From Rhopilema esculentum (taxonomy: Eukaryota): a stretch of 64,000 nucleotides of DNA. Numbering within the stretch: the first letter of the stretch is position 1; each line of letters starts with the position of its first letter. Location of the stretch: assembly GCF_013076305.1 (NCBI RefSeq), contig NW_027019762.1:5541008-5605007 (forward strand), in the 5' to 3' direction. The notes under the pieces are model-generated. The model saw only the letters and a program-made list of their open reading frames with translations, had not been told where the DNA came from and searched no databases. Below are positions 1 through 64,000 of this stretch, one piece after another. The position numbers and the translations under genes are program-made.

Positions 1-2134
1 AGTGTCCTAATAAACTAATTTATTTTACCCTATTAGTTTGGAATGTAAATCTAGAACTGCAATCTTACGTTAGTCGCTAAAATAGCAAATGGAAAACGTG
101 ATGTTGAAAAATAACTTGAATTGAATTTTACTTGTACTATATACAGTTGAAAATGACTTGAAGTAGTATGGTATGGTCCCCTATTTGGTGGAACTTAATG
201 AGTCATAATGTAATGAAAGGTTCACTACACTAGAAATTCCCAGACTATCGACAGAAGCTTCGCAGCTGTGACATTATTTACAAATCACGAGGAAACAGAA
301 ATTTGGTTACACCTCTATTGAGAAAACAGAGAAGGGAATGATAAAGAATGTTAGCATGGAACTTTGTTTGTTGTCAGAAAGAAAAATACAGATTCCTTTT
401 TTATTTGAAAATGGAATCGGCGAGACTCGTGGGACACAACTATTATTATTACTATCCGTTTGTTTTATGTTGGAAATAAATAAAATATCACAGCAATAGC
501 TTACAGTAGCGAGCAGTATTAGCAATGAGATGATTAACACCAACATCTACAAAAACAAACTTGCAATATCAACATAATCATAATAATTAACAATAAAAAC
601 AATAATAAAACCCAAAATACATGTATGCTCTAAAATATAGTAAAATGTACAAAAACCCAGATTTTTTTTATAGAACAGTAGATTGCCTAGAACAGTCCTT
701 GCAGGTGAAAAATTTCGTAGGGGTCTATCTTTGGGGACAAACCAAAAAAGTTTCACCGCCAAATCGTTATCAAATCAAAATTCCTTGCAACATGAGTAAG
801 TCATAGCTGTTTATAAAAATACCTTTTTTGTTTACTGCAATGTGGTGAAGCTCAAATCGCTTCACAGAAGTGTTTTTAACAATATTCTGTTCCAGTTGTC
901 TTTGAGGGCCATTTCAGGGACAGTAACATATGGACAAAGTTAAGTCCTTTGCTACAAGGATAAATTTGAATGGCAGTATCTCCAACTTGCTCATTTATAA
1001 TAGGTCATCAGGATAAAGTGAAGGTCATCAGTTAAGGAGGATTGCAAAGTAAACGGTTATTCAGTTTACAAGTTCTTGTTTTGGGTGCTTTATCAAAATA
1101 GGCAGGTCTCCTTGTTTCAAGCGAAAGGTCGAACTTTGACATTGATTGCCATTTTCATTTGTTTTAAATAAAATCTGTTGTCTAAAAAATTATTTCAACA
1201 ACAAACTTTGATGTGAACTCAATCTTAAACAACAGGTGCAAATTTTAACAAAATTTATTGAAACATGTCAAGGGTCTTCGTTGTTTATCATTGCAAATGT
1301 CACCAGAGGCAGCTCATTGCTATAATATAGGTAGAAAGGTTGAACTTGATTGATCAATTTTCGAAATTCAAAAGCACGTACCACTACCAGTGTGGAGGCA
1401 AAGAATATCAACTCTGTTTCATTAAGCCTGTAAAACCTAAAGACTAAGAGCCCCTGCTAAACTCTATTCAAGAAGTCGCGAGAAAGATCTGGAAAAAGAT
1501 TTATTTTTGAAATATTTATGCCTTCAGGCAAAACGTCTTCAAACTTCAGCTATTAACACGTAACGACAAAGAGTGCATAAAAGTAGTTCTATCAGGTTTT
1601 CAGATAGATCAAAATCTAAGGTATCTTGTATATTTGAAGTGTGTTTAGTTTTGGAAATTCCCTTCTTTGATACCAGTCATTTCGTTATTGGGTCCCATTA
1701 GCTTTGGGCCCTGGGCGATAAAAGTCATAAATGCGGCCTTCTTGCGAAATGCCAAATGCATCTGGCAGTATGAGCAACAGGAGACGAGAGTTCTACTACC
1801 GGACTACAACCCCCGTATTTTAAGACTAGAAATCACCCATATTTAATTAAGATGCTGATGATACATTCAAAACACCAGAACTACCATCTTTAAACTCAAA
1901 CGAGTTGGAATATTGGCTGCTTTCGCATATGTTACCAGGTTATCAGTGAAAGAGAATGTCAAACCAAATAAGGTTCATTGGTTAAACTGAATTTGTACTA
2001 CAAACCTGTTCAGTAGCAGAAATGTTGGCTGTGAGATGGGGAATTTGTTTGGTTAGGGGATAGGTCATGGGAATAGGTGGAGGAATAGGTCGAGGAACTA
2101 GGTCAGAGGGAGATTTACTAACGTTTTAGCCAAT

Positions 2135-2452
2135 GAGTCATGAGTCATGAGTCACAATGAGTCGCATGGGTTGCAATGGGTCGCAATGAGTTGCAATGAA
2201 TTGCAATGAGTTGCAATGAATTGCAATGAATTGCAATGAGTTGCAATGAGTTGCAATGAATTGCAATGAGTTGCAATGAGTTGCAATGAATTGCAATGAG
2301 TTGCAATGAATTGCAATGAGTTGCAATTCATTGCAATGAGTTGCAATGAATTGCAATGAGTTGCAATGAATTGCAATGAGTTGCATTGAATTGCAATGAG
2401 TTGCAATGAGTTGCAATGAATTGCAATGAGTTGCAATGAATTGCAATGAGTC
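2135..2452. repeat. Tandem 10-mer satellite (TTGCAATGAR)n, ~30 copies
   Basis: Alternating ttgcaatgag/ttgcaatgaa units seen directly in the sequence. The array is preceded by 3x tgagtca. It accounts for the spurious minus-strand ORFs 2138-2632 and 2152-2436, which translate as repeated LQFIATHCNS. Confidence 0.95.
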
Positions 2453-3056
2453 GATTAAACTCCTAAGACAATTTCCTATGCTGAATAGAAATATGACATT
2501 CAAATTTGAATGTTTACTTAAAACCATAAAAAAAGACAAGCACAGCTTGCCAAAAACTAAGAAAAAACAGTGTAATAGCAGCCTCAACCAGATCACACTG
2601 GGCCCTCTCACATAACCATAACCTTGTGTCATTAGGAGATCTGAGATCCAGTTTGTTGTTAAAATAGTGCGCCCAACTAGAGAGGGGCGTGTGTCCGTAT
2701 AGATATACTATACTGCTATGTATAATGTATGGAAACATGTATATATGTTGTCTTTTATAATTCTGAGTCCTTGCTACCTCATCAGCCAATCCACCAGGTA
2801 GAGCATTTCGGGGCTTATGATCAGTATGCTCCTTTACACCTGGGTGCCCCCTCACCCCTGCTTCCAGGAATGATGCCAGCAAAGGTGTATCATTGTACCG
2901 TACTGTTGTATAGAAAAGAACGAGATATCCAGGTCCATGTGTATCGGGTTTATTCATGTAACCCGGCCATAAATGTATATATATAAAATGTATTACTGAT
3001 ATCAACTCACGACTCTTGACTCACGACTCACTGACTCAAGACTTAGGCAAACTCGG

Positions 3057-3960
3057 TCAGAGGAATAGTTTGAGGGGATAGGTTGTGTGAAAAAGTCGGG
3101 AAGGTAGGTTGAGGGGATAGGTTGGTGGGATAGGTTGAGGGAAAGGGTCGAGGAGACAGGTCGAAGAAATCGGCTGAATGAATAGGTTGAGAGAGAAGGT
3201 TGATAAAACCGGTCGAGGGAATCGGCTGAGGGAATAAGTTGAGGGAGAAGGTCGATGGGATAGGTTGGTGGGATAGGTTGGGGAAAGGGTCGAGGAGACA
3301 GGTCGAGGGAATTGGCTGAGGGAACAGGTTGAGGGGATAGGTCGGAGGAGTAGGTTGAGGGGGTAGGTCAGAGGAATAGGTTGAGGGGATAGGTTGTGTG
3401 CATTATACCCTGGGTACAAGAGCCACCCAAATTTGAGAACGGAAACAGAAGATAGGAGATGAGAAGCGGATGAGCGTCTATCTGGCATCCAGGGTATATG
3501 AATAGGTCTGGAAAATCGGTCGAGGAGACAGGTTAGGGGAATAGGTTGAGGGGAAAGGTCGAAGAAACAGGTCGAGGGATTCGGCTAAGGAATAGGTTGA
3601 AGGAATAGATGGAGGGAATGAATAGAAGGGAATGAGTCAAAGGAATAGCTTGAAGGAATAGGTCGAGGGAATAGCACAAGGGGAAAGGTCGGGGGAATAG
3701 GTTGGGGTAATAGGTTGGGGGAATAGGTTGAGGGGATAGGTTGGGGGATAGGTTGGGGGGATAGGTTGGGGGGATAGGTTGAAAGGATAGGTTGAGGAAA
3801 CAGTATGATAGTATGAGATTGAGGTTATAGGTGGTGGGAATAAATTGAGAGAATAGGTTGAGAAAATAGGTCGTAGGAAAAGGTCGAGATAATAGGTCGA
3901 GATAATAGGTCGATATAATAGGTTTAGAGAATATGTTGAGGGAATGGGTGGGGGAGTACT
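3057..3960. repeat. Degenerate ~13-14-bp minisatellite (GGATAGGTTGAGG / AGGTCGAGGGAAT family), ~0.9 kb, with a short leader copy at 2040-2110
   Basis: Dozens of imperfect ggataggttgagg / gaataggttgagg / aggtcgaggga units. A ~100-bp unique segment interrupts the array at 3400-3500. It produces the spurious ORFs 3057-3488 and 3533-4111, which translate as a proline/leucine-rich P-I-P-x-T-Y repeat. Confidence 0.9.
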
Positions 3961-8102: not shown

Positions 8103-10009
8103 ACTGGTAATTATACAAAAATTTATCGGGAGTGCAGCTGACATGGAATCCATACTGGCACCGATGAATGTGTTATGAATCATGATTTACATACAGTATT
8201 ACTTACTGACACCATCTAACTTTCTTTATGATTGCTTCTTTGCTAAGTTCTTTCTTTTTAAACAACTGATCAAAGGCATTACCCATTGCCACCGATAATG
8301 GTGGTCACGTTCTGGGAAATTTGCTGACTTTGTTGTCTCTGCACAGGAACGAGATCAAATGTAAATGGCAGCGGATTCACAGTTGTTTCAACATTTAGCT
8401 CTCTGTCTGCATCCCAGAAACAAAGTCCATAGTTATTCTCCCAATTTGTTGGAACATGTGATATGATACCTGAAGGTGAATCTTTTGATTTGCTATTGAA
8501 AATTTTGTCTTTGAAACTTAATTGGTGTCATACTTGTAATATTTTTATAATTCTGTAATAGCTGCAAATGACTTGAAATTTCATTTAACTCAACAACAAC
8601 AATAGTTAGTTACAATATATTTTGGTTTAAAATATGTGTACGAGAACAATATTAAAAAATAGCCTATCTAAAAGAGCTTGAAAAATCAAACAAAATGAGC
8701 CGTCACTGGCCATGATAGGAGCAGTATTTAATGATAAAATTTCAAAAATATCATAGGAAATTGTTGATAAGCTAGATCAAAATACATCAGAAAACATCAC
8801 CAAAAACTGCAATTCATAGTTATTAGGTGATAGTGCCATTAAATTACCAAAGATGACAGATATTGCCAAAGAAACCCAAAACTAATACCAGGGCTGGAAA
8901 ATTGTCCAGCAGCAGCGCTGCCAGGAAATTTTTAGCACAAAGTCATTGCAGGAAATTGTTGCTGTTTGCCAGGAAATTTTTATTGTGAAATCTTCATTAT
9001 GTACTTGATTTTAATTTAAAATTAAATTTATGTTACTCTCTTTCTATGGAACACTGTTTTCATGTGAATGGTTGTTCTGCACCACTTACGAAAGACGAAG
9101 ATTATCACATTTATTAAGATTGTCGTAATATCATGATTATCACATTTAAATAAAGTTTTAAAAGGGGCTACGCTATCAAGTTTTATTAGCTGGGTTAAAG
9201 CCAAACCTTTCAAATTGGCATGGCCCAGTGAACAATTGGAGCCCCCAAATAAATGTTAATTACCATCTTTGATGGCTAGGCTGCCAGATGAAATTATAGA
9301 TGTGGTAATAACTCGAAGGGCACTGAAGTTTTAGGACACTGAATTTACAAAGAGCTGGGGACTCTCCCACTCTGAGAGAAAGTTTGGTCCTGTCAGGACT
9401 CAAACCACAAACCCTTTCATCTATTTAATCAGCGACCCTAACCACTGAACCATCCTCCTACCTTATATATAATACTCCCTTGATCCTCTATCATATTTAA
9501 GTAGACTGAGTTAAAGTTTGATTTGTTTAATTAACACCATTTTCTTGAAACTTTTGCACACAAGTGACCCACTTTAGCGCTCACTTGCTACTGCTGTGTC
9601 CCACTTAAAAGCCTGAATCTGGATCTGTGCTAGGGAAAATGAGATCAAGGACATTACATTTTCTTTTTTCTCAGAGACTGTTTTGAATATTGTCAACCAG
9701 TAATTGTGACTATAAAATCTTTTATCCTGAATACATCAGTGCAAGTCATATAACATTTAAATCCTTGTCGACAAAACTCTTGCAGGGTAGTTATATTGGT
9801 TTTACTAAAGATCTTGCAGCTCCCCTCTGTAAATGTTCCAATTTCCCATTGGAAGATTGTGGTACTGGGTGCTCAAGGTGGGAATAAAGTAAGCATATCA
9901 GGATCTTGGGTAGTTTGGTAATTAGAAAGATTTTGAAGGTAATGTCTGTTTCTTTGCAGGGCTTTTCCAATTTTGAAGCAAAAGCTTAGAGAGAGAAGGA
10001 AAACAAAGT

Positions 10010-37938: not shown

Positions 37939-38411
37939 GTGAGTGTACTTTTCTACGAGCTCAACTTTAATCACAAGAAAGCAGAAATCCTTCGCAAATG
38001 GTGTGTCATATGTCGCTTTGATGAGTCAATTGCCAAAAGTTCTAGAAGACTTTAGGGTTTCCTGAACAAACGCACTTGCGATACATATTTTTTGCCAAAG
38101 TCTCATGCAGTGTGTTGTAAGAACTTAAGACAAGATTAGTCGCCAGTAATATTTCATGATTCAATATCATGTGCTTTCTTAGGATAGGAATCGTGAGATG
38201 AAAACAAATCGTAGATAATCATCGTAGAATTGGTTGTTTTCTTTCTAGCGTGGCTGAAAGAATAATCGTGTTTTACTAGTTTTTAGGTAGAACTGAAAGC
38301 GAGCTTTATAGAAATTCATTGCTAGTCAAGAGCTGATGTTAGAGATAAGAAAACTGAGGTTTAATCAGTTATTTCATCAATGCATTATGACCTTTTATGC
38401 TTTCTTTGTAG

Positions 38412-39244
38412 GTCATCGATCGTTGAGTTCCTTTTAACAAACGGACTGTCACAAAGCTGGCTTGTAGGTAACACTTTAGTGACAGTCACAACCAGTGGCT
38501 CATCCTCAGAGATGTGCGTGGCTTGTAACCAGAGACGTGCCATATTAACAGCCAATAAAGCTGCCGCCAAGCTCAGGTCCCAGAAACTTAACGAAGAGAG
38601 GCGTTTGAAAGGGGATCATCAATTGGCTGAAGAGCAAGAATCTTCATTGTCGCTAGCTGTTGAAGCAAGTATAGCGAAAGCAAGTATGGGGAAAGCAAGT
38701 ATGACAAAAGCAAGTGACGGCTGTTCTATAATGGCTGAAAATGGTATCCCTAAAGAGTCAAAGAAAGGTCAGGTTAGGCCGGAATTGATGCAGGTGTCAA
38801 CGACAGTTGCCAGTGGCGAAAAAGGTAGGCCTAGGACAGACAATAAAGGATCCGACACCACAACCACTAGCTTCGAAATCAAGTCTTGCGAAGAGGCTGC
38901 CGGGGATCGTAAGGAATCAAGAGTTGACAGTGCTGTTGAAATGACTGAAGAATATGAATCTGTAAAGGAGGGTGGCTTGGTGACAGCAGAGCTTTCATTG
39001 CCTCCTGAAGTCAAATTCGAAGTCTCGGAATCCCCGGCTGCCCAGTCATATCTTCCATTGATAGAACCAGATGCCTTGCCTGATGAGACTGGCAATGAGA
39101 TATCGCTTGTTAACCGACTCGCTCTTCAAGAGCAGGACACAAGCACTGGCTACGTCTTTTCTCCAACGAATTACTTTCTCGATGAGATGGGTTCTTTAGC
39201 TGAAACAGGTATTTCCGCAACATCGTCTATGGAGTTCTTAAAAG
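38412..39244 (+). CDS. TSC2: TSC2 exon 29 (large linker exon): (R)SSIVEFLLTNGLSQSWLVGNTLVTVTTSGSSSEMCVACNQRR... ...SSMEFLK(G)
   Basis: Acceptor tttctttgtag|. The 833-nt open frame matches human [39 protein letters not shown]. It then continues as a low-complexity S/E/K-rich linker. Donor AAAG|gtttgt gives a phase-1 exit. Confidence 0.8.
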
Positions 39245-40484
39245 GTTTGTGCCTAGAGCTTCTCTTTAAGTCATCAACTGTCCTATCTTTACTGCACTGA
39301 CTCTTTTGATAATGCTCATAAGGTGGTTATGTCAACCAGTTGTTTTGACATCGTAAAAGCTGATTACGATTTGGCTGGGCACGATCCAAGTTTGATCACG
39401 CTTATAGTTTTAAGAATAAAGTAAACATACGGATGTTCAAATATGATATCTGTTGATCTCTGAGCTTTACACTGCCTAATCTCCCCGCAGACTGTCATTG
39501 TTGCTGTTTTTGGTCATTTTAGCAGAGAAGAACAGCTCGAAACCTATATTTTGCTTTACTTATTGTTAATGTCGGTAATTGTCTATTTAAACCGTCCTTG
39601 CTCAATTTTCGTCGTTATTTTTATTACAAGATTAGAAGAATCCAGCAAACGGCATTTAAGAGTCTTTTCCTTGTAGCATACAATTCCCGCCAGGACTGCA
39701 AGTAGTATTTTAGAAGTGCTCTACAATAACAACACATTTACTGGTACAATTTTTATGTCGGGTCATCCTTTGTAAACCATACAATCTACGTGAAAGAAAT
39801 TGTCGAATCCTCAAATGTTGAAACAAGCTGTTTCTATTTGGTAGTAACTGAGCAAGACCAAGCAGGATTGTTGCATATGCATGTTGACGGTTTAGGAAAT
39901 TTTCGATTCCAGATCATATGCTGCTGTGCGGATAATCAGTTCTGATGATTTTGAGCGAAATTCTTAAAGCCAACATTGAAATCCTACCATGGGCTGTTTC
40001 TGTTTTACATAAAACATAACTTGCGGCAGCAGAAGCGCACAAAAATGCCATCGGGAAAGGCACTTGGGTTTGACAACTTCTAATTTCCTGCATTATTAAA
40101 TGCAGTAGGATGATTACATCATTTGCGCACCATTATTATTAAGAAGCTTCATTGACTCTCTGAGAAAACCTTTTTAAAGTATTATCTTTCCATGAAATTT
40201 TCCCGTTTAAATATGATACCCGTATTTCTGGTGGTTCATCTAAGTTTATGTTCAACGTCTTTTAGAAATTGTGGAGAATGGTAGTATTTACCTATCATCG
40301 ATATGGTTCTTTCGACAATATACTGAGAACAAGCTGTTATAGCTGCTTGGAACACTTTTCAACTGCCTGTTAAATGTAGGAATGGAAACTCTCTCTATAC
40401 ATTCTCCAACTATCACTCCAGACTGCGCTGCTTGTATCTGAATTTGTATTTAATACAATTTTTGTTATGTTTTGCATTTGACAG

Positions 40485-41261
40485 ACCAAGCTGAATTAAA
40501 AGATGATGATGCTGAGGATGGCGATAATGGAAACGAGTTAAAACAAGAACATCGCACCTCCGAAGATTCTAGAATTCAAAAAGAGACAACAGAAATGAAT
40601 GTTGTCCAAAGCCAGCAGCAGTCGGAACATTTGGTTGCAAAAACTGCAGAATGCGGGGAAGCTTTATCTGTCCATAGTGCTGGCGTTGAAAAGCAGGAAC
40701 GAACAAGCTCTAAAGAAATGATGCTGCTGCCTGGGAAGTCTACCTCGGATGTTGAGACACAACGCCCGCCTAAAAGCATTGCACAGAAAGGAAAAGTTGA
40801 TAGTCCTGACTCTCAAGTTCCACGACAATTAATTTCCAGGCTTGAGCAAGATGCACCGGCGTTAGGATACAACGAAGGTCTTCCTAAGCAGAGCTTACTT
40901 CGTGCTCAACCTGTGTCAACAAATGTCTCTCAGAATTCCTCTTTGCAAGCTTCCCCCGCGACATCTAAAAAGACGTCATTTCAGAATTCAGTCGAACTTT
41001 CTTCAGAATTTGAAATGGTTGATGAAGCTGATGCAGCCTCGTTCTCGCGCAAAGAGAGCAGCAGTGCCAGATCACTGCCAAACACAATATGCAATTGCTC
41101 CTCGGATGGCTGGGCTGAGATCGTGATACGCAGACCAACTGGCAATACATCTTGGGTGATAAAAATCGAAAATGTTCTCCATGAAAGTGACACAAGCCGG
41201 ATTGAAGATATCACTGCACTAGCTGCAGCGGTTGAAGCCGAGGATTATACGTCAGATATTC
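40485..41261 (+). CDS. TSC2: TSC2 exon 30 (linker): (D)QAELKDDDAEDGDNG... ...[32 protein letters not shown]...AEDYTSDI
   Basis: Acceptor catttgacag| with phase 1 on entry. Contains the conserved tuberin block [24 protein letters not shown] (human), seen here as [24 protein letters not shown]. I placed the 3' end at the strong donor ATTC|gtaagt at 41262. The exact end is uncertain because the ORF reads through this donor. Confidence 0.7.
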
Positions 41262-41639
41262 GTAAGTATAAGAGAGCCACTATTTGCAGTATGGCTTCTA
41301 AGGGTTTTTTGTTTGCGCTAAGGGATTTCCTAGTACTCAGATATTTAAAAGAATTGGCTCTTAAGCAATGGCACTTTAAAGCTCGATATTCTATGGTCAT
41401 TTCACTCACTTTAACTTTGTCGCACAGTGAATTATATGGGATTGCTGGTATCTGAGGCATACAGTTCCTATTTATGTTCATATTTTCATATATTTCATTC
41501 TTTTAATGAGGATTGCCCCGCAGCAGTAACTGGTTTTCAAGGGGCCTTCAAAAAAAATCAATTAGTAGGGTGTGAAATAAAAAACAAATAATTGAATAAT
41601 AATTAGATAAACCGTATTTAAAATGTTTAAAATTGACAA

Positions 41640-57765: not shown

Positions 57766-58388
57766 CTACCGCTGTACCACTGGACACCGTGAACATTCTC
57801 GGGAAAAGTAAGCTCTCCAAGACACTGTCAGGCCCAGCGACCACGAGTGCGAGCTCTCAGACCGCCGTCTTGTCTTCGCTGCAGAATTTCGCTGCATCAA
57901 AAGACAAGGAAATGCAAAAGCTACCCGCTGCCCACGATAAGGAAAATCGTGAAGCACCTGTGTCGAAATTTGTTGGATCAAAAAATGTTGGACAGATGGG
58001 GTCGTTGATAAAGGATGAAAGTGGAGTTAGTGCTATTGGTGCTCAGGAACCGGAAGCTTCAAAGGAAAGTCAACGTGAATTACAAAAGAAAGGCCCGCTG
58101 AAGCTGGAGCCCCAGAAACAGCTCAAAGAGCCGCTCAAGGCTGGTGCCCAGGCCCTCAAAGAACGAATAAGCAGTTTTTCAACGTATCGTCCACGTGGGA
58201 AGACTATTTCCGCCTACCCAGTGTCAAAGATTCCCCAAACTGGGGCCGAAAATAAAGACAGACTGACGTTGCCAGACAAGGGTTTCAGGGCGTCGTTGAA
58301 TCCCTACTTTGTGTTTCTTCAATTCTTTTATTCACCATTCGTCAATGCTGGGGGTAGTGGTAGGCCTTTGCTGCTTGGTTGTGGAGAG
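57766..58388 (+). CDS. TSC2: TSC2 linker exon: (S)TAVPLDTVNILGKSKLSK... ...RGKTISAYPVSKIPQTGAENKDRLTLPDKGFRASLNPYFVFLQFFYSPFVNAGGSGRPLLLGCGE
   Basis: The acceptor ctttattcag| has a perfect TACTAAC branch point 25 nt upstream. The exon matches human [63 protein letters not shown]. Donor GAG|gtgtgt. It needs phase 1 on entry, which is consistent with the exit of exon 30. Confidence 0.75.
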
Positions 58389-59262: not shown

Positions 59263-59536
59263 GTCATTGATAGAGCTGTGAGGATGCTTGATCGAATCCC
59301 GCCGTATGACCATCACAAAATAGGTGTTCTCTACGTTGGCCCTGATCAGGAATCAAATGAAACCGCTATTCTAGCCAATCAGTTTGGCTCGCATAGATAC
59401 CTACAGTTCCTGAGTGGCCTTGGAAAACTAACAAGTTTATTAGATTGCTCTTACACCGAAGTGTACACCGGAGGCCTGGATCGAAATGGGGAGGATGGGA
59501 AATTCGCGTATTCATGGAGAGACGATATTACCCAAG
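59263..59536 (+). CDS. TSC2: TSC2 exon: VIDRAVRMLDRIPPYDHHKIGVLYVGPDQESNETAILANQFGSHRYLQFLSGLGKLTSLLDCSYTEVYTGGLDRNGEDGKFAYSWRDDITQ(G)
   Basis: Acceptor ccattgcag|, donor G|gtttgt. Matches human [87 protein letters not shown]. The downstream GAP-domain exons were not found within the window. Confidence 0.85.
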
Positions 59537-62231
59537 GTTTGTGTAAGCTCAATACTGTATCTTGTTATGTTTGAGTAAGGTTGAGGCTCCTATACAATCG
59601 GTACATGGGGGAGGTTCCTGATAGAGAAAATAAGATTATCGTCATGATATATTGTTAAAATGATGACGCACAATGAATCCGGTTCGATATTAATTGATGG
59701 AAAGAGCTTCGTAATCGAAGTTGTTTGGGAACACGGAAAATAATGAATTTAAGCACAAACTCTTTTAGGGAGAGAAGAGCTTTTGTTCCTTTTTTGTTCC
59801 GAAGCTATTGTTCGCTACTTTTTGTATATTTTTATACTGAAACTTTTTGGAAGCCTTTGGTATCCAAAAAATCTTTCTATTTTTTCATATCTTTTTGTGG
59901 TATTTTTAACAATAAAGGTACAACGCACTAAGGCTGGAGCAACTTCTTTGTTTGATCCGCTGGCGGTTTCTTAATGACAGCGCATTTTATTTGAATGATG
60001 TGCAGGTCACTATTTGAATCTCAAAGCTGTATTTGAATGTCACGCGGAAAATAGTTCGTCAGATTTTTTATAATTACGAACATAAAGAAAACTAGGGTGC
60101 ACTGTGATGGCGTCGCCTAGCAAAGTGACGCTGCCTATTCTTAATTTTTCATTAGGCTCTTAATCAAAGGCTTTTATCTCGGTTATATTTTACCCTTTGG
60201 GACATACTGTGATTTTAAAAGGACTTTATAAATTCTGTTTTATTAGCCAAGCCGACAAATCATTTCTCTCTCTGTTCTTCTTATTTGAAATTTTCTTTCT
60301 TCAATGGTCCGTAATTCGCTTAGCCATGGCGTAGCACTGTCTTCGCTTTCTTTTGAGCAAAGGTTCTAGGAAATGAGTAAGCTTTTACACATGTCAAGTC
60401 TAAACAGGCAAATCCTTGGTCTGATAGAGATAAGTCTAGTTGCCTTATCTTTGCACTATAGTCCAGGTAAAAGTAGTAGCAATTTTTTACCAAACTGATC
60501 GTCATCATAATAGCATGCTTGATACTATCATTTAACTAAGGACCCAAGTACTGATATGACACGCCTTGATGCTCTGTGTATTTCTGTGTATTTTGTTAGC
60601 AATGTCTGTTTCTTTTAAAGCCTGGTTTTCGATGTCTGCTAGTGATGTCTGTTACCAGCATTTAAAAGTTGTCACGAATGCTTCAGTGGCTTTATATTCT
60701 TATTCACTGTTTAATAAAAAAATGTAGTGCCAGTTTTACATTTGAAAATTGTTTCGGGTGTTGATTCTACTCACAGAAGCACTTTAGGGATGCTGAAATT
60801 GTGTTAATACCCTTTTGTTCTTAGAGAATGTTGTTCTGAACTTTTCAGTTGACATATGTGGCATTCCTTGAGTTTCATGGACACTTTCTTGCAGCTTCTG
60901 CTGCATGGCATTTTTGGATCCCTCTTCTCTTTCGCACCATTGAATCAGTCTTGTGCCTTTGGCAGTCTGATTAAAAAACACCTCTATTCAGCGTGGAGCG
61001 ATATTTTATAATTGCCACATTAGCTATTTTAAGTTTGCACTGTGCGTTACTGGGACAGAGAGAGACGAGGAACCGTGGACATGTCGTCCAAACAGTTAGC
61101 ACTATTGTTATAGAGAATGTGGGGATGTGACAACCCTTTGGGAATGTTCTGCTTCAAAAACAAAGGGCCTTTTTTATCTAGGAGTGCTTCGTTGGCAAAT
61201 TTTCAACCTTGTCGGCAAATAAAGGATGGCTCACCCACTCTGTCGGAAATAGGACCAAGAAACCCCTCTTGAGCACAATAGATAGCGACGGCTCTGAAAA
61301 CGCTTCCAGGTGAAAGAAAACAGATTGCTTATCTTTTCCCAGCGAAAAGGAGACTGATCTTACCTGACAACAAGTTTTCATCAAATGGACTTTTTATTTG
61401 TCAGTTTTGTTTTACTTTTTTTCGTGCACTGTTATCATTTTTGGCCTTTATTTGACATTTTTATATGTCTTCTATACTGTATACGGTATTATCACAGATA
61501 AAAGTCCTTATGGACTTGTTCGGTTTAACTTTTGGAAATCTCTGTTGAAGATTTCTTGCCACTGTCTCGAAACAACGAATATGTAAACCTCTTCAGGCGA
61601 TATACGCAGGATAAAATAATCATCTTGGGAAAATTTCTCTTAATCCCGATTAGACGAGAAAATATCCTAAATGAAGTTTAATGCTGCAGCTGCTGAATCT
61701 GGTATTAAACAAACTAGAACTGTTTTCACTCTAAAGCGTTATGTTTTTACATTAATAATTGCATTATGGTCCGTTGTCCGTGCAGGTCAATTCCAACAAC
61801 TTCTGATGCTTCGGAGGTTTGAATACTTGCACTTAGAAAGACGGTCAACTGATGACACAGGCTTGTAGCTAGTATGAAAAAGGATTTCATTTTACAGAAA
61901 GCCAGGGTAAAGTTAAGATACAGACGATAACAATTACAATCGATAAACTATGTTTAAACAACCAGATGTATTCTGCACGCATAAATATGCCCCTCAAAGA
62001 AGACTACATTATGCCCTTACTTACATGGGTTAGAGTAAACAATTGATCTCTCATAGATCTGTGTATGGGTTAATCGAGAGCCTTTAAGTACAGAGAAAGG
62101 GTTCAGAGCGACGTGCCCTATGACACCAACAACCTTTGACATTTGATTTAAAATTCTATATATTATAAATAAACTAATAATTAGACCTTGATCAGGAGTT
62201 TCTAAATTATTACCACAGTTCTAAATCACAA

Positions 62232-63395
62232 CTATCGAGTGACGCTTCTAAGCCTTGTAAAGCCATTCTTTACTGGTGAAATTATGAGGCTTCGACATCT
62301 TCCTACGGCGTTGCAGAACTCGAGTGCAACTGAATCCGTCCACGGGGACGCGAAGAACCCTTCTAAGAAGCCGCAATGACCTCCTGTGTCTGTAACCACT
62401 TCCAGGCAGTATGGGTTATTTCTTAAGACCACATATGCCGGGATCTTGTCATCTAATACCGGGTCGTCCAGTGAATTGATAAACAGTGCTGGCGTGCGTA
62501 TGTTCCTTATGAATGTCATTGGATTGTTTATTTTCATCCACTCACTGAAACCGTCGTATGGGCTCGTATCCCAATGCGACAATTGGAGAATATCATGCAA
62601 AGAACCGTCAGTGTCGTGATCGCCTTGCTTTTCGCGGAAATGCATGCAAGTACTCTCTCTAACAAGCTTTTTGTAATATTGATTCACAACTTCTTTGTAC
62701 GGCTTTTTGAGACCAGAGGTAAGTACCATCTCCAGATCTAGGGATGATGACACAAATACTGCTGCTGTGATTAGACTAGACTTTCCGCGCTTTCCCAAGT
62801 AGCTGAAAATGGGACCGGCGCCGAGCGAGTACCCTACGGCAAACAAGTCACTAAAGGGACTTACATTGTGAATATAGTCAAGTGCCTCCTTGAAATCGTC
62901 AGCATCCAGAAATGCAGCAAACTGCCTTGTTGTTAAGGGTACATTGTGGCCCCGACTGTTATAGACGACCGGTTGGAATCCTTCTTTGTAAGAAGCCTCA
63001 CAAATAGAGTAAACATCTGGCCCGAGAGCCCATGTACTGATGATCAATATCGGGTCTGTGTTGGAACGAGCGCTTTTTATGTCCCGTGCTTCTGATTCAA
63101 CATACCACTGAAGCGAGATAGTCCCACCATCTCTCATCTGTATATATTCTGTTTTGAACTGAAACCTGTGGTTGAAAAAATGGCCCAAACATCCTAGAAT
63201 TGTCTGTATATGTGAATTCGTCGCCCAGAGTGTTGGTTGATATCCTGCTTTTAGTTTCTCGCATAACGACAGTATAGCAGTGTTCCGTTTGTTTTTCTTC
63301 CAGTACAGCTTTGAAGAGCTGTTTTCGTTATGCTTAGCTCTTAAAAAAAGGCAGCACAAAAAGAGGAGCAATGTTAGCAGAGCCTCGATGACCAT
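62232..63395 (-). CDS. Intronless ABHD1/ABHD3-like alpha/beta-hydrolase (abhydrolase domain-containing protein), 387 aa, apparently intact
   Basis: Single uninterrupted 387-codon ORF. It is collinear with human ABHD3/ABHD1 across several blocks. The N-terminal hydrophobic anchor is MVIEALLTLLLFLCCLFL. The block YQPTLWATNSHIQTIL corresponds to human YYPTVWCFEGRGQTLL, IQMRDGGTISLQWY to IKTADGGQISLDWF, and VVYNSRG to VVFNNRG. The nucleophile elbow is GYSLGA (human GVSMGG), followed by SYLGKRGKSSLITAAVFVS. The Asp motif is NSLDDPV and the His motif is GGHCGFLEG (human GGHIGFLEG). Confidence 0.85.
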   Translation of the reverse strand: MVIEALLTLLLFLCCLFLRAKHNENSSSKLYWKKNKRNTAILSLCEKLKAGYQPTLWATNSHIQTILGCLGHFFNHRFQFKTEYIQMRDGGTISLQWYVESEARDIKSARSNTDPILIISTWALGPDVYSICEASYKEGFQPVVYNSRGHNVPLTTRQFAAFLDADDFKEALDYIHNVSPFSDLFAVGYSLGAGPIFSYLGKRGKSSLITAAVFVSSSLDLEMVLTSGLKKPYKEVVNQYYKKLVRESTCMHFREKQGDHDTDGSLHDILQLSHWDTSPYDGFSEWMKINNPMTFIRNIRTPALFINSLDDPVLDDKIPAYVVLRNNPYCLEVVTDTGGHCGFLEGFFASPWTDSVALEFCNAVGRCRSLIISPVKNGFTRLRSVTR

Positions 63396-64000
63396 TGCTT
63401 TGCTCTGATTTCTATCTCGTCACGTATTCGACTGGTAGTGCGTAGACCTATCAACTGGACAAATCAACTGTTTCCACGCATCACAGAGGTCTTTATATCA
63501 ATATGTCGACGTTGCTCTCAAGAATAAAAAACCTTTAGATGTGTCGGTAGTACCTTGTCGGAAAGGCTTCTGCACTGTCTATCACTTTGCATTAATAATT
63601 CAGAGATAATAAGTTATTCATAGAGAGATGTTTCTCTGTTTTGCTTGACCCCAGCTCCTTAAGCAGTTCGTTCAAGCCGCTTTTACCCTCCTATTTTCTT
63701 CTGGCTTTCACCGTTAAGCGAGTTCACGCTCTATGACCTCATCTCAGATAGCTAGTTTTCTCCACAGGAAGATTGCCAAACCTCTCTTCAGTCATACTTG
63801 CGCTGTCAATTTGATCATCTGCGTTTTAAGGAAAGACGCTGACAGCACAAAAGCCTGTTGCAGCCTTCTTTTTACTTATGGATGATTAGAACCATGATGG
63901 CAGCTTCGTTTCACTATCAAAAAGAAAATTTATATCCGATTAGCGCAGAAAGGTTCTCTACGTCTGCGGGGAATAAAACTAAGATGATCGAGTTTAAGAA

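Follow-up and report, generated by a model that had tools for sequence, protein, structure and literature searches.

The 64-kb stretch of DNA analyzed here (the window) very probably carries a functional gene of the ABHD15 clade, which encodes a predicted membrane-anchored enzyme and lies antisense within the TSC2 intron interrupting the Rap-GAP domain. The gene product would span the membrane once, by an N-terminal anchor, and would carry a capped α/β-hydrolase domain and a full Ser190–Asp310/311–His340 triad; unlike mammalian ABHD15, it would likely be active. The gene itself would be transcribed independently, from the strand opposite TSC2, and would be situated between the first Rap-GAP exon and the exon bearing the catalytic Asn, and judging from an ortholog would have its whole CDS in one exon, with a short 5′-UTR exon several kb upstream. 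The coding features of the hydrolase are as follows.

62232–63395, minus strand: complete, single-exon CDS of an ABHD15-clade α/β-hydrolase, 387 codons plus TAG (from the ORF, Pfam, orthologs, and tree).
63330–63392, minus strand: codons 2 to 22, N-terminal hydrophobic helix, a predicted membrane anchor (from hydropathy and AlphaFold2).
62826–62828, minus strand: codon (TCG) of Ser190 in GYSLG, the predicted nucleophile (from sequence, motif position, and ≥90% conservation).
62463–62468, minus strand: codons of Asp310–Asp311 in NSLDDP, the predicted catalytic acid (from invariant columns).
62376–62378, minus strand: codon of His340 in GGHCGF, the predicted catalytic base (from an invariant column).
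62235–62255, minus strand: codons 381 to 387, the conserved basic RxRSxTR tail, here RLRSVTR (from C-terminal comparison).

The ORF listing gives this CDS as the longest of all ORFs in the window, encoding 387 residues from an ATG start without interruption; with ≈42% GC and a ≈6% stop chance per codon, the arithmetic probability of 387 stop-free codons in a random frame is ≈4e-11. The translated protein matches Pfam Abhydrolase_1 (PF00561) with E = 1.8e-8 and 34.8 bits (cut-off, 25.8) over profile positions 2 to 244 of 245. An AlphaFold2 model (pTM 0.77), submitted to Foldseek, retrieves PDB entries for esterases, thioesterases, and monoglyceride lipases with E values of 1e-10 to 1e-8, generic esterases only, and a PDB sequence search gives a single weak match to a bromoperoxidase; profile match and modeled fold together point to membership in the α/β-hydrolase fold superfamily. 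Residues 1 to 19 have a mean Kyte–Doolittle hydropathy of 2.35 and the model places a helix at residues 2 to 22, both of which fit an N-terminal membrane anchor. The initial annotation had described an uninterrupted 387-codon ORF with its anchor and its Ser, Asp, and His motifs intact, a description that ORF, Pfam match, motif positions, and hydropathy confirm. The other long plus-strand ORFs of the window, two of which are central TSC2 exons, gave no Pfam match, and an Rfam scan of the window likewise gave none.

Full-length orthologs of 387 to 389 residues with an intact frame and 51 to 97% identity are present in at least eight other assemblies, and 11 orthologs in this identity range are free of frame disruption. 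Relative to the sister-species contig (L001), the hydrolase has a dN/dS of 0.084, and the flanking intron DNA is 60 to 92% identical; the gene is under purifying selection. The ORF, the intact orthologs, and a dN/dS of this size against such flanks thus mark the gene as real and constrained. Evidence on transcript structure comes from L011, a contig built from a sequencing run. It links positions 2265 to 2413 of ortholog contig L008 to the sequence from position 9140 on, skips the 6.7 kb between them with canonical GT..AG ends, and continues through the hydrolase CDS. We take L011 to be RNA-derived, only because of this canonical splice; on that view the ortholog is expressed, and its mRNA loses an intron from the 5′ UTR, the acceptor of which lies 862 nt upstream of the ATG. 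The gene had initially been called intronless, which holds for the uninterrupted CDS but not for the ortholog mRNA with its 6.7-kb intron. The flanks of the CDS contain the following features.

63396–64000, minus strand: 5′ flank or 5′ UTR of the hydrolase, continuing past the window end (from sliding identity).
63965–63964, minus strand: AG of a candidate splice acceptor, ttttattccccgcag before the junction and ACG after it (from sequence only).
61835–62231, minus strand: conserved 3′ flank of ≈400 nt, probably the 3′ UTR (from the L001 alignment).

By sliding identity, the 5′ flank is 91 to 97% identical to L001 and is as conserved as the CDS, and the 3′ flank forms a gap-free block with L001 that extends to 61835 at 89 to 91% identity, beyond which identity falls to 64 to 85%.

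To place the hydrolase among related proteins, we scanned 1.84 billion representatives with HMMER and obtained 3162 matches. The best named matches are all ABHD15 or ABHD15-like proteins (Tubulanus, Lineus, Branchiostoma, Haliotis, a Paramuricea cluster, Microcaecilia, Megalops, and Polypterus). BLASTP scores are 118 to 202 bits against ABHD15 or ABHD15-like proteins and 81 to 98 bits against human ABHD1/2/3 (92–98 bits for ABHD1/3), the latter as uncurated sequences. The family tree, by neighbor joining only and with uncurated ABHD1/2/3 outgroup sequences, groups the window protein with the ABHD15 sequences, apart from ABHD1/2/3, with a bootstrap of 99/100. Sequence comparison thus assigns the hydrolase to the “AB hydrolase 4” family (ABHD1/2/3/15 and bacterial YheT) and, within it, to the ABHD15 clade, and the original ABHD1/3-like label has to be replaced, given the names of the close relatives and the position in the tree. 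The window family falls into its own subclade with P0145, P0148, P0171, and P0154 (73% bootstrap), and because of this separation may be a paralog of the canonical ABHD15 gene; the nearest nonorthologous relatives are 30 to 34% identical. The RS-x-T(R) end found in the window protein (RLRSVTR) recurs in caecilian and fish ABHD15 ([QH]RSYTR) and in corals (RNRSYTT and RDRSYTQ), and since it is missing in the nemertean, amphioxus, and abalone members, this motif is supportive of the assignment rather than universal.

The motifs GYSLG (residues 188–192), NSLDDP (307–312), and GGHCGF (338–343) present the superfamily order of nucleophile (in GxSxG), acid, and His; 14 homologs show no variation at D310, D311, and H340 and ≥90% conservation at S190. 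The model has a pLDDT below 50 at residues 338 to 349 around His340, and the oxyanion-hole region (ISTWALG) departs from that of canonical relatives. Judged from its motifs, the protein most probably has serine esterase or lipase activity and would act on a lipid substrate. The RLRSVTR tail fits the Akt/AGC kinase consensus RxRxxT (R381-x-R383-x-x-T386), and regulation by tail phosphorylation is plausible from this match and from homology to the vertebrate RSYTR end. In mammals, insulin leads to phosphorylation of ABHD15 by Akt (PMC3827343, PMC6390945).

We next consider the host gene, of which the following parts lie in the window.

38380–41455, plus strand: two large central TSC2 exons with motifs SWLVGNTLVTVTTSG and GWAEIVIRRPTGNTSW, within ORFs 38380–39300 and 40472–41455 (from translations).
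58287–58379, plus strand: TSC2 exon segment ahead of the Rap-GAP domain (LNPYFVFLQFFYSPF...), outer limits approximate (from tblastn).
59263–59536, plus strand: TSC2 “exon A,” first half of the Rap-GAP domain (VIDRAVRMLDRIPPYD...SWRDDITQ; from tblastn, Pfam, and sequence).
59537–64000, plus strand: probable 5′ portion of the TSC2 intron dividing the Rap-GAP domain, with the hydrolase inside it, and continuing beyond the window.

The two central ORFs, which have no Pfam domain, we take to be TSC2 exons by comparison with human TSC2. Exon A aligns with the human TSC2 C terminus in tblastn with E = 5.6e-31 and 54% identity, and Pfam Rap_GAP matches the fragments orthologous to it. It is bounded by a cag acceptor and by a phase-1 gt donor at 59537, and its end is identical in nine relatives. 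The initial annotation had put the Rap-GAP exons beyond 59.5 kb; this applies to the catalytic half, which probably lies beyond the window, whereas the first Rap-GAP exon is located at 59263–59536.

The full arrangement can be read on contig ctg95746 of a relative (L012/L016), where exon A (≈2609790–2610074, plus strand) is followed by the antisense hydrolase (2648669–2649856, minus strand) and then by exon B (VIFHVATLMP..HIGNNFV; 2656393–2656533, plus strand), with an exon A–B intron of 46 kb. In the window as well, TSC2 exons and the hydrolase occupy opposite strands, and antisense nesting in the TSC2 intron is supported here by the incomplete Rap-GAP domain together with the order in this relative. 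The arrangement appears to be old because it is common to species whose hydrolases are only ≈38 to 40% identical. In related species L013 and L014/L015, 0.4 to 0.55 kb separate exon A from exon B, the intron is empty, and no hydrolase is found within 10 kb; conversely, the 10 kb around the ABHD15-clade genes of L017 and of the Tara coral scaffolds L018/L019 contain no TSC2 exon. Since the intron of related species is short and empty and ABHD15-clade genes of other invertebrates occupy other sites, the nesting appears restricted to one lineage.

The hydrolase could instead be a tail-to-tail 3′ neighbor of TSC2, with the missing Rap-GAP exons lost, divergent, or misassembled, an arrangement that the initial annotation had allowed beside the intronic one. 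Such a reading would account for the lack of any match to exons B to D between 59.5 and 64 kb of the window (tblastn with the human C terminus and with the L013/L014 exons, and motif regular expressions) or within 10 kb past the hydrolase ATG in L001 to L004 and L008 (tblastn and motif regular expressions). A protein profile search for exons B to D tied none of the 120 listed of 188 matches to a hydrolase-bearing contig, and full-length TSC2 transcripts of the lineage were represented by fragments of exon size only. We nevertheless regard a tail-to-tail arrangement as quite improbable. Exon A breaks off partway through the Rap-GAP domain: its end is a conserved phase-1 GT donor that precedes the catalytic Asn motif, so that a TSC2 protein truncated at this point would lack GAP activity. 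Sequence conservation of exon B is high, and the exon is readily detected in every relative in which it is within reach; in L012/L016 it lies past the hydrolase on the contig and strand of exon A. The end of exon A and the order on ctg95746 thus favor the intronic position over the tail-to-tail one, and the opposite orientation stands. How the gene entered the intron is a separate matter, and the initial annotation had proposed a functional retrogene, that is, a processed mRNA of a multiexon ABHD parent reverse-transcribed into the TSC2 intron and retained. This proposal is consistent with the uninterrupted CDS, with a location unlike that of other clade members (no TSC2 near the L017 to L019 genes), with the short and empty intron at the same place in related species, and with LINE reverse-transcriptase ORFs in the same TSC2 intron of relatives. 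The 5′-UTR exon and intron could be post-insertion recruits, as is known for retrogenes. The expected marks of retroposition were not recovered: in the 1.5 kb past the stop codon, the window, L001, L003, and L008 all lack A-runs of ≥8 and A-rich 20-mers, and the sole flanking direct repeat is an AT-rich 14/15 pair (61746–61760 and 63586–63600) that is equalled in 6% of shuffles, with 605 nt of upstream sequence in the window. The downstream copy of this pair lacks an exact match in L001, no poly(A) precedes the repeat, and we consider it more probably a chance pair than a target-site duplication. No intron-bearing parent was identified among the homologs retrieved, and on genomic contigs the ABHD15-clade genes of both subclades, two cnidarian lineages among them, each consist of one complete ORF (P0145/P0293, P0146, P0148, P0154, and P0173). 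A single-exon CDS is therefore general in the invertebrate ABHD15 clade, corals included, so that intronlessness is no evidence of retroposition here and the comparison with vertebrate ABHD1/2/3 does not apply. With the nearest nonorthologs only 30 to 34% identical, any retroposition would be ancient and its marks gone, and absence of poly(A) would then be expected. A retrogene origin is on balance unlikely, and there is no evidence for a recent one; the hydrolase is best described from its sequence as an ordinary nested gene, the sequence of which does not tell RNA- from DNA-mediated relocation.

Two further alternatives concern the protein. Horizontal transfer of an intronless YheT-type hydrolase from a bacterium would fit the intronless ORF and the fact that PRK10985 (YheT; NF008218) is the sole NCBIfam match. 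That match scores 75.2 bits, far below the cut-off of 267, over profile positions 4 to 306 of 326, as befits a homolog rather than an equivalog of YheT, and the best bacterial-looking match is 25% identical across 47% of the query. The protein nests inside the metazoan ABHD15 clade with the bootstrap given above, bears a eukaryote-type N-terminal anchor, and has an ortholog with a spliced 5′ UTR. On the low PRK10985 score and the metazoan placement we rejected a bacterial origin, which is effectively refuted. A noncatalytic regulator or scaffold like mammalian ABHD15 is a less remote prospect, yet one we hold to be doubtful. It would accord with the position in the ABHD15 clade, with repeated loss of the nucleophile within that clade, and with strong conservation of the C-terminal tail, suggestive of a signaling or docking role. 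Mammalian ABHD15 is catalytically dead (PMC6601125), lacks the catalytic serine, and acts through PDE3B, which it stabilizes (PMC6601125, PMC6390945). Against this stands the conservation of Ser190, Asp310/311, and His340 despite saturated synonymous sites among orthologs, a pattern expected from selection on catalysis. Because Ser190 is present and conserved, the mammalian mode of action should not be assumed for the window hydrolase, for which a catalytic function is preferred.

Animal genomes contain many antisense intronic genes, and nothing found for the hydrolase challenges current understanding. What changes is the annotation, to an ABHD15-type rather than an ABHD1/3 gene and one that is not demonstrably a retrogene, and a conserved case of host-gene nesting is documented in TSC2, a heavily studied tumor-suppressor locus. 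The catalytic serine lost in mammals persists in some invertebrate relatives of ABHD15, which also share the basic C-terminal Ser/Thr tail, and such serine-bearing relatives could help reveal the role of ABHD15 before the pseudoenzyme state. We see a slim chance that the window family constitutes an unrecognized, catalytically competent ABHD15 paralog subfamily of some invertebrates that is functionally coupled to TSC2, as its long-conserved antisense position in the intron could indicate. If so, both proteins would be Akt-pathway targets, TSC2 transcription and the hydrolase could be coregulated or mutually interfering, and the pair would offer a model for an ancestral enzymatic role of ABHD15 in insulin/Akt–TSC–mTOR lipid signaling.

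Compared with vertebrate and mammalian ABHD15, the window protein shares clade, length class, N-terminal hydrophobic segment, RS-x-T(R) end, and conserved HxQT, QMxDxG, DDP, and GGHCGF blocks; it differs in being only 27 to 33% identical to named ABHD15 or ABHD15-like proteins, in retaining the nucleophile Ser that mammals lost (PMC6601125, PMC6390945), and in a genomic site within TSC2 unlike that of other ABHD15 members examined. With ABHD1, ABHD2, and ABHD3 it has in common the superfamily, the “AB hydrolase 4” family, the Ser–Asp–His order, and an N-terminal anchor, whereas these proteins fall outside the clade, have GGHIGF or GGHLGF in place of GGHCGF, and lack the RSxTR tail. As for the locus, human TSC2 and PKD1 are tail-to-tail neighbors, and there too an opposite-strand gene is found on the 3′ side of TSC2, but the hydrolase lies between Rap-GAP exons and not past the last exon, as seen on ctg95746. 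A parallel in layout is provided by OMG, EVI2A, and EVI2B, which are nested antisense within an intron of the RasGAP gene NF1. In both cases, a small opposite-strand gene with few or no coding introns sits inside an intron of a many-exon GAP gene, although host and guest are different and the TSC2–hydrolase pair is seen in one invertebrate lineage only.

The longest open reading frame (ORF) of the 64-kb window encodes, on the minus strand, the intact hydrolase that the initial annotation had described, with the same coordinates and an ATG start. All three expected motifs are present, and Pfam Abhydrolase_1 is matched across nearly its entire profile (E = 1.8e-8; 34.8 bits, where 25.8 is required), in keeping with the proposed alpha/beta-hydrolase identity; a fold search confirms a capped alpha/beta-hydrolase fold and nothing more specific. 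Residues 1 to 19 are strongly hydrophobic (KD 2.35) and helical in the predicted structure, as the suggested N-terminal membrane anchor would be. The features of the window are as follows.

62232-63395, minus strand: hydrolase ORF, 387 aa, from the ORF listing
Hydrolase residues 188-192: GYSLG motif
Hydrolase residues 307-312: NSLDDP motif
Hydrolase residues 338-343: GGHCGF motif
63965-63964, minus strand: AG of a candidate hydrolase splice acceptor, plausible from sequence
38-41.5 kb, plus strand: TSC2 central exons carrying SWLVGNTLVTVTTSG and GWAEIVIRRPTGNTSW, from translation
58287-58379, plus strand: TSC2 segment LNPYFVFLQFFYSPF
59263-59536, plus strand: TSC2 exon A, the first Rap-GAP exon (54% identity to human TSC2, E = 5.6e-31)
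2147-2451: minisatellite, 10-nt unit ATGAGTTGCA, ~30 copies
3065-3396 and 3537-3949: minisatellite, 13-nt unit GGGAATAGGTTGA, ~25-32 copies

The minisatellites belong to G-rich arrays at 2070-3949, which give rise there to a GC-skew spike (+0.44) and to spurious minus-strand ORFs of 140-190 aa.

The family assignment differs from the "ABHD1/3-like" label originally given, which proved wrong. The YheT model is the sole NCBIfam match and stays below threshold (75 bits, cut-off 267). When 1.84 billion representatives were scanned in full with HMMER, 3162 homologues emerged, 40 of them with E < 1e-30; cluster look-ups of 20 of the best representatives supplied names for about half, and wherever a name was informative it read ABHD15 or ABHD15-like (Tubulanus, Lineus, Branchiostoma, Haliotis, Microcaecilia, Megalops, Polypterus/Erpetoichthys, and a cluster including the octocoral Paramuricea). 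In a neighbor-joining tree (35 sequences, 394 columns, 100 bootstraps), the hydrolase and all named ABHD15 or ABHD15-like proteins form one clade with 99% support, which leaves outside it the representatives of plant and protist type as well as uncurated sequences of human ABHD1, ABHD2, and ABHD3. BLASTP agrees, scoring ABHD15 or ABHD15-like proteins at 118-202 bits and the uncurated ABHD1/2/3 sequences at 81-98 bits. The C terminus lends independent support for ABHD15 membership: the last residues are RLRSVTR in the window protein and R-x-R-S-x-T-R in its orthologues, compared with RNRSYTT and RDRSYTQ in coral homologues and [QH]RSYTR in vertebrate ABHD15. Within the clade, the hydrolase joins homologues P0145, P0148, P0171, and P0154 (73% bootstrap) apart from canonical ABHD15-like genes, and thus may belong to a paralogous subfamily.

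Among 5.8 billion proteins, a word-indexed search recovered 11 relatives of full or nearly full length (51-97% identity), which all belong to the same length class and are free of frame disruptions; beyond these, identity falls to ≤33%. The close relatives derive from ENA metagenome-style assemblies, Logan contigs, and two GenBank assemblies. In a 14-sequence alignment, D310, D311, and H340 never vary, conservation at S190 is at least 90%, and the C-terminal K376, G378, R383, T386, and R387 are invariant or nearly so. The comparison with the closest relative, sister contig L001 (97% protein identity), gives pS 0.159, pN 0.015, and dN/dS 0.084, with flanking intron DNA at 60-92% identity; against more distant orthologues, synonymous sites are saturated and 64-70% of residues are retained. 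The low dN/dS and the residues kept despite this saturation show that purifying selection acts on the gene.

TSC2 lies on the plus strand and the hydrolase is therefore antisense to it, as first noted. The motifs SWLVGNTLVTVTTSG and GWAEIVIRRPTGNTSW, which we take to mark its central region, fall in unusually long open stretches of 306 and 327 aa (38380-39300 and 40472-41455, plus strand), neither of which has a Pfam match; TSC2 thus has large exons in its disordered middle and not solely short ones. The placement of the Rap-GAP exons beyond 59.5 kb was only partly right, because exon A lies at 59263-59536. Exon A ends in SWRDDITQ directly before gt, a boundary common to nine relatives, and in transcript-derived P0025 this end is followed directly by VIFHVSTLMP. 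The rest of Rap-GAP comprises exon B (FH[IV][AS]TLMP and the HIGND Asn thumb), exon C, and exon D. None of these was found at 59.5-64 kb by tblastn, with human and much closer sequences, or by motif searches, nor by tblastn and motifs within 10 kb past the hydrolase start in five related loci (L001, L002, L003, L004, and L008). The order is visible on contig ctg95746 (ERZ25878582).

~2609790-2610074, plus strand: exon A
2648669-2649856, minus strand: hydrolase orthologue P0293
2656393-2656533, plus strand: exon B

P0293, whose ≥90%-identity cluster is represented by P0145 (~38-40% identical to the window protein), therefore sits inside a TSC2 intron of ~46 kb that splits Rap-GAP. In L001, L002, and L003/L004, the hydrolase adjoins exon A convergently, with 2.7-8.3 kb between them. 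In two other relatives (L013 and L014/L015), the corresponding intron spans 0.4-0.55 kb and contains no hydrolase, and the last four TSC2 exons occupy 3-5.6 kb; no TSC2 exons occur within 10 kb of the ABHD15-clade genes of invertebrate L017 or Tara coral scaffolds L018 and L019. The best reading of these arrangements is an old, lineage-restricted nesting, and of the two placements initially offered, within a TSC2 intron or tail-to-tail beyond its 3' end, the former very probably holds in the window's own species as well.

Other ORFs accompany these loci. The ctg95746 intron holds an uninterrupted 541-aa ORF (L012, 11659-13284, minus strand) 1.4 kb past exon A, with a weak F-box match below the Pfam cut-off (E ~1e-3), and so carries at least two antisense ORFs, the hydrolase included; 1.4 kb downstream of the hydrolase orthologue, still within this intron, is a 1003-aa LINE-type ORF (Exo_endo_phos and RVT_1; L016, 12626-15637, minus strand). 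L003 and L004 (both ERZ25067901) share an identical hydrolase, P0007, and near-identical flanks including exon A, and diverge upstream of the hydrolase, with a Mutator-transposase ORF in L003 and an RVT_1 ORF in L004; they represent either haplotypes or a recent segmental duplication.

The description "intronless" holds for the coding sequence and apparently not for the transcript. L011, a contig assembled from a sequencing run, matches 2265-2413 of L008 (the genomic locus of orthologue P0006, from ERZ25066855), jumps to ~9140, and covers the coding sequence; the 6.7 kb skipped opens with GTAAGT and closes on a pyrimidine tract and AG. We interpret L011 as spliced mRNA whose first exon is non-coding, by which the P0006 gene would be expressed in that species and carry a 5'-UTR intron. 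Run-derived L009 and L010 are colinear with the genome across this acceptor and may be genomic reads, unspliced RNA, or alternative-start transcripts. In the window, the 600 nt 5' of the ATG share 91-97% identity with L001, equal to coding-sequence conservation, and the non-coding segment 63496-63894 (minus strand; 93-97%) suggests by this closeness a constrained 5' UTR or promoter.

The gene had been proposed to be a retrogene on the grounds that vertebrate ABHD1/2/3 are multi-exon, a comparison that does not apply here. In both subclades and in several lineages independent of one another, genomic contigs carry full-length ABHD15-clade proteins as single ORFs (P0145/P0293; P0146, which is from Tara coral metagenomes; P0148; P0154; and P0173, the Paramuricea cluster), and one coding exon is therefore what is usual for the family in these animals. 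Relocation via RNA is possible, since LINE and other reverse-transcriptase ORFs occur in the Rap-GAP-splitting intron of relatives, but nothing specific favors it: A-runs and A-rich tracts are absent within 1.5 kb of the stop, both in the window and in its closest relatives, and the sole direct repeat at the flanks is an AT-rich pair (14/15) such as 6% of shuffles yield, with no poly(A) before it and no exact match to its downstream copy in L001. A bacterial origin is excluded by placement in the metazoan ABHD15 clade and by weak bacterial matches. The ORF is thus real and its nesting very probable, and the ABHD1/3 label and retrogene origin are unsupported.

What emerges is an ABHD15-clade gene that is conserved, under selection, and coded by one exon; it runs antisense to TSC2, its triad is intact, and its basic Ser/Thr tail is conserved. 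Its product would be a serine hydrolase, anchored in the membrane by its N terminus, that acts on a lipid ester; the RxRSxT tail may be phosphorylated by an AGC kinase for regulation. Transcription of the gene would start from its own promoter inside the TSC2 intron, and a 5'-UTR exon would lie further upstream. Any regulatory link between it and TSC2 is speculative. In mammals, ABHD15 has no catalytic serine and is not labeled by a serine-hydrolase probe, is phosphorylated following insulin/Akt signaling, and stabilizes PDE3B (PMC6601125, PMC6390945, PMC3827343), whereas the window protein retains this serine. So do several other clade members from coral, amphioxus, abalone, and caecilian (P0012, P0146, P0150, P0153, and P0183), and loss of the serine is thus not clade-wide. 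Gly replaces it in P0013, P0147, P0149, P0155, P0195, and P0206 (nemerteans, the sea slug Elysia, and some fishes), a change that happened several times inside the clade. As an ABHD15-family member that is also antisense and intronic, the hydrolase combines two known kinds of gene and is of modest interest.
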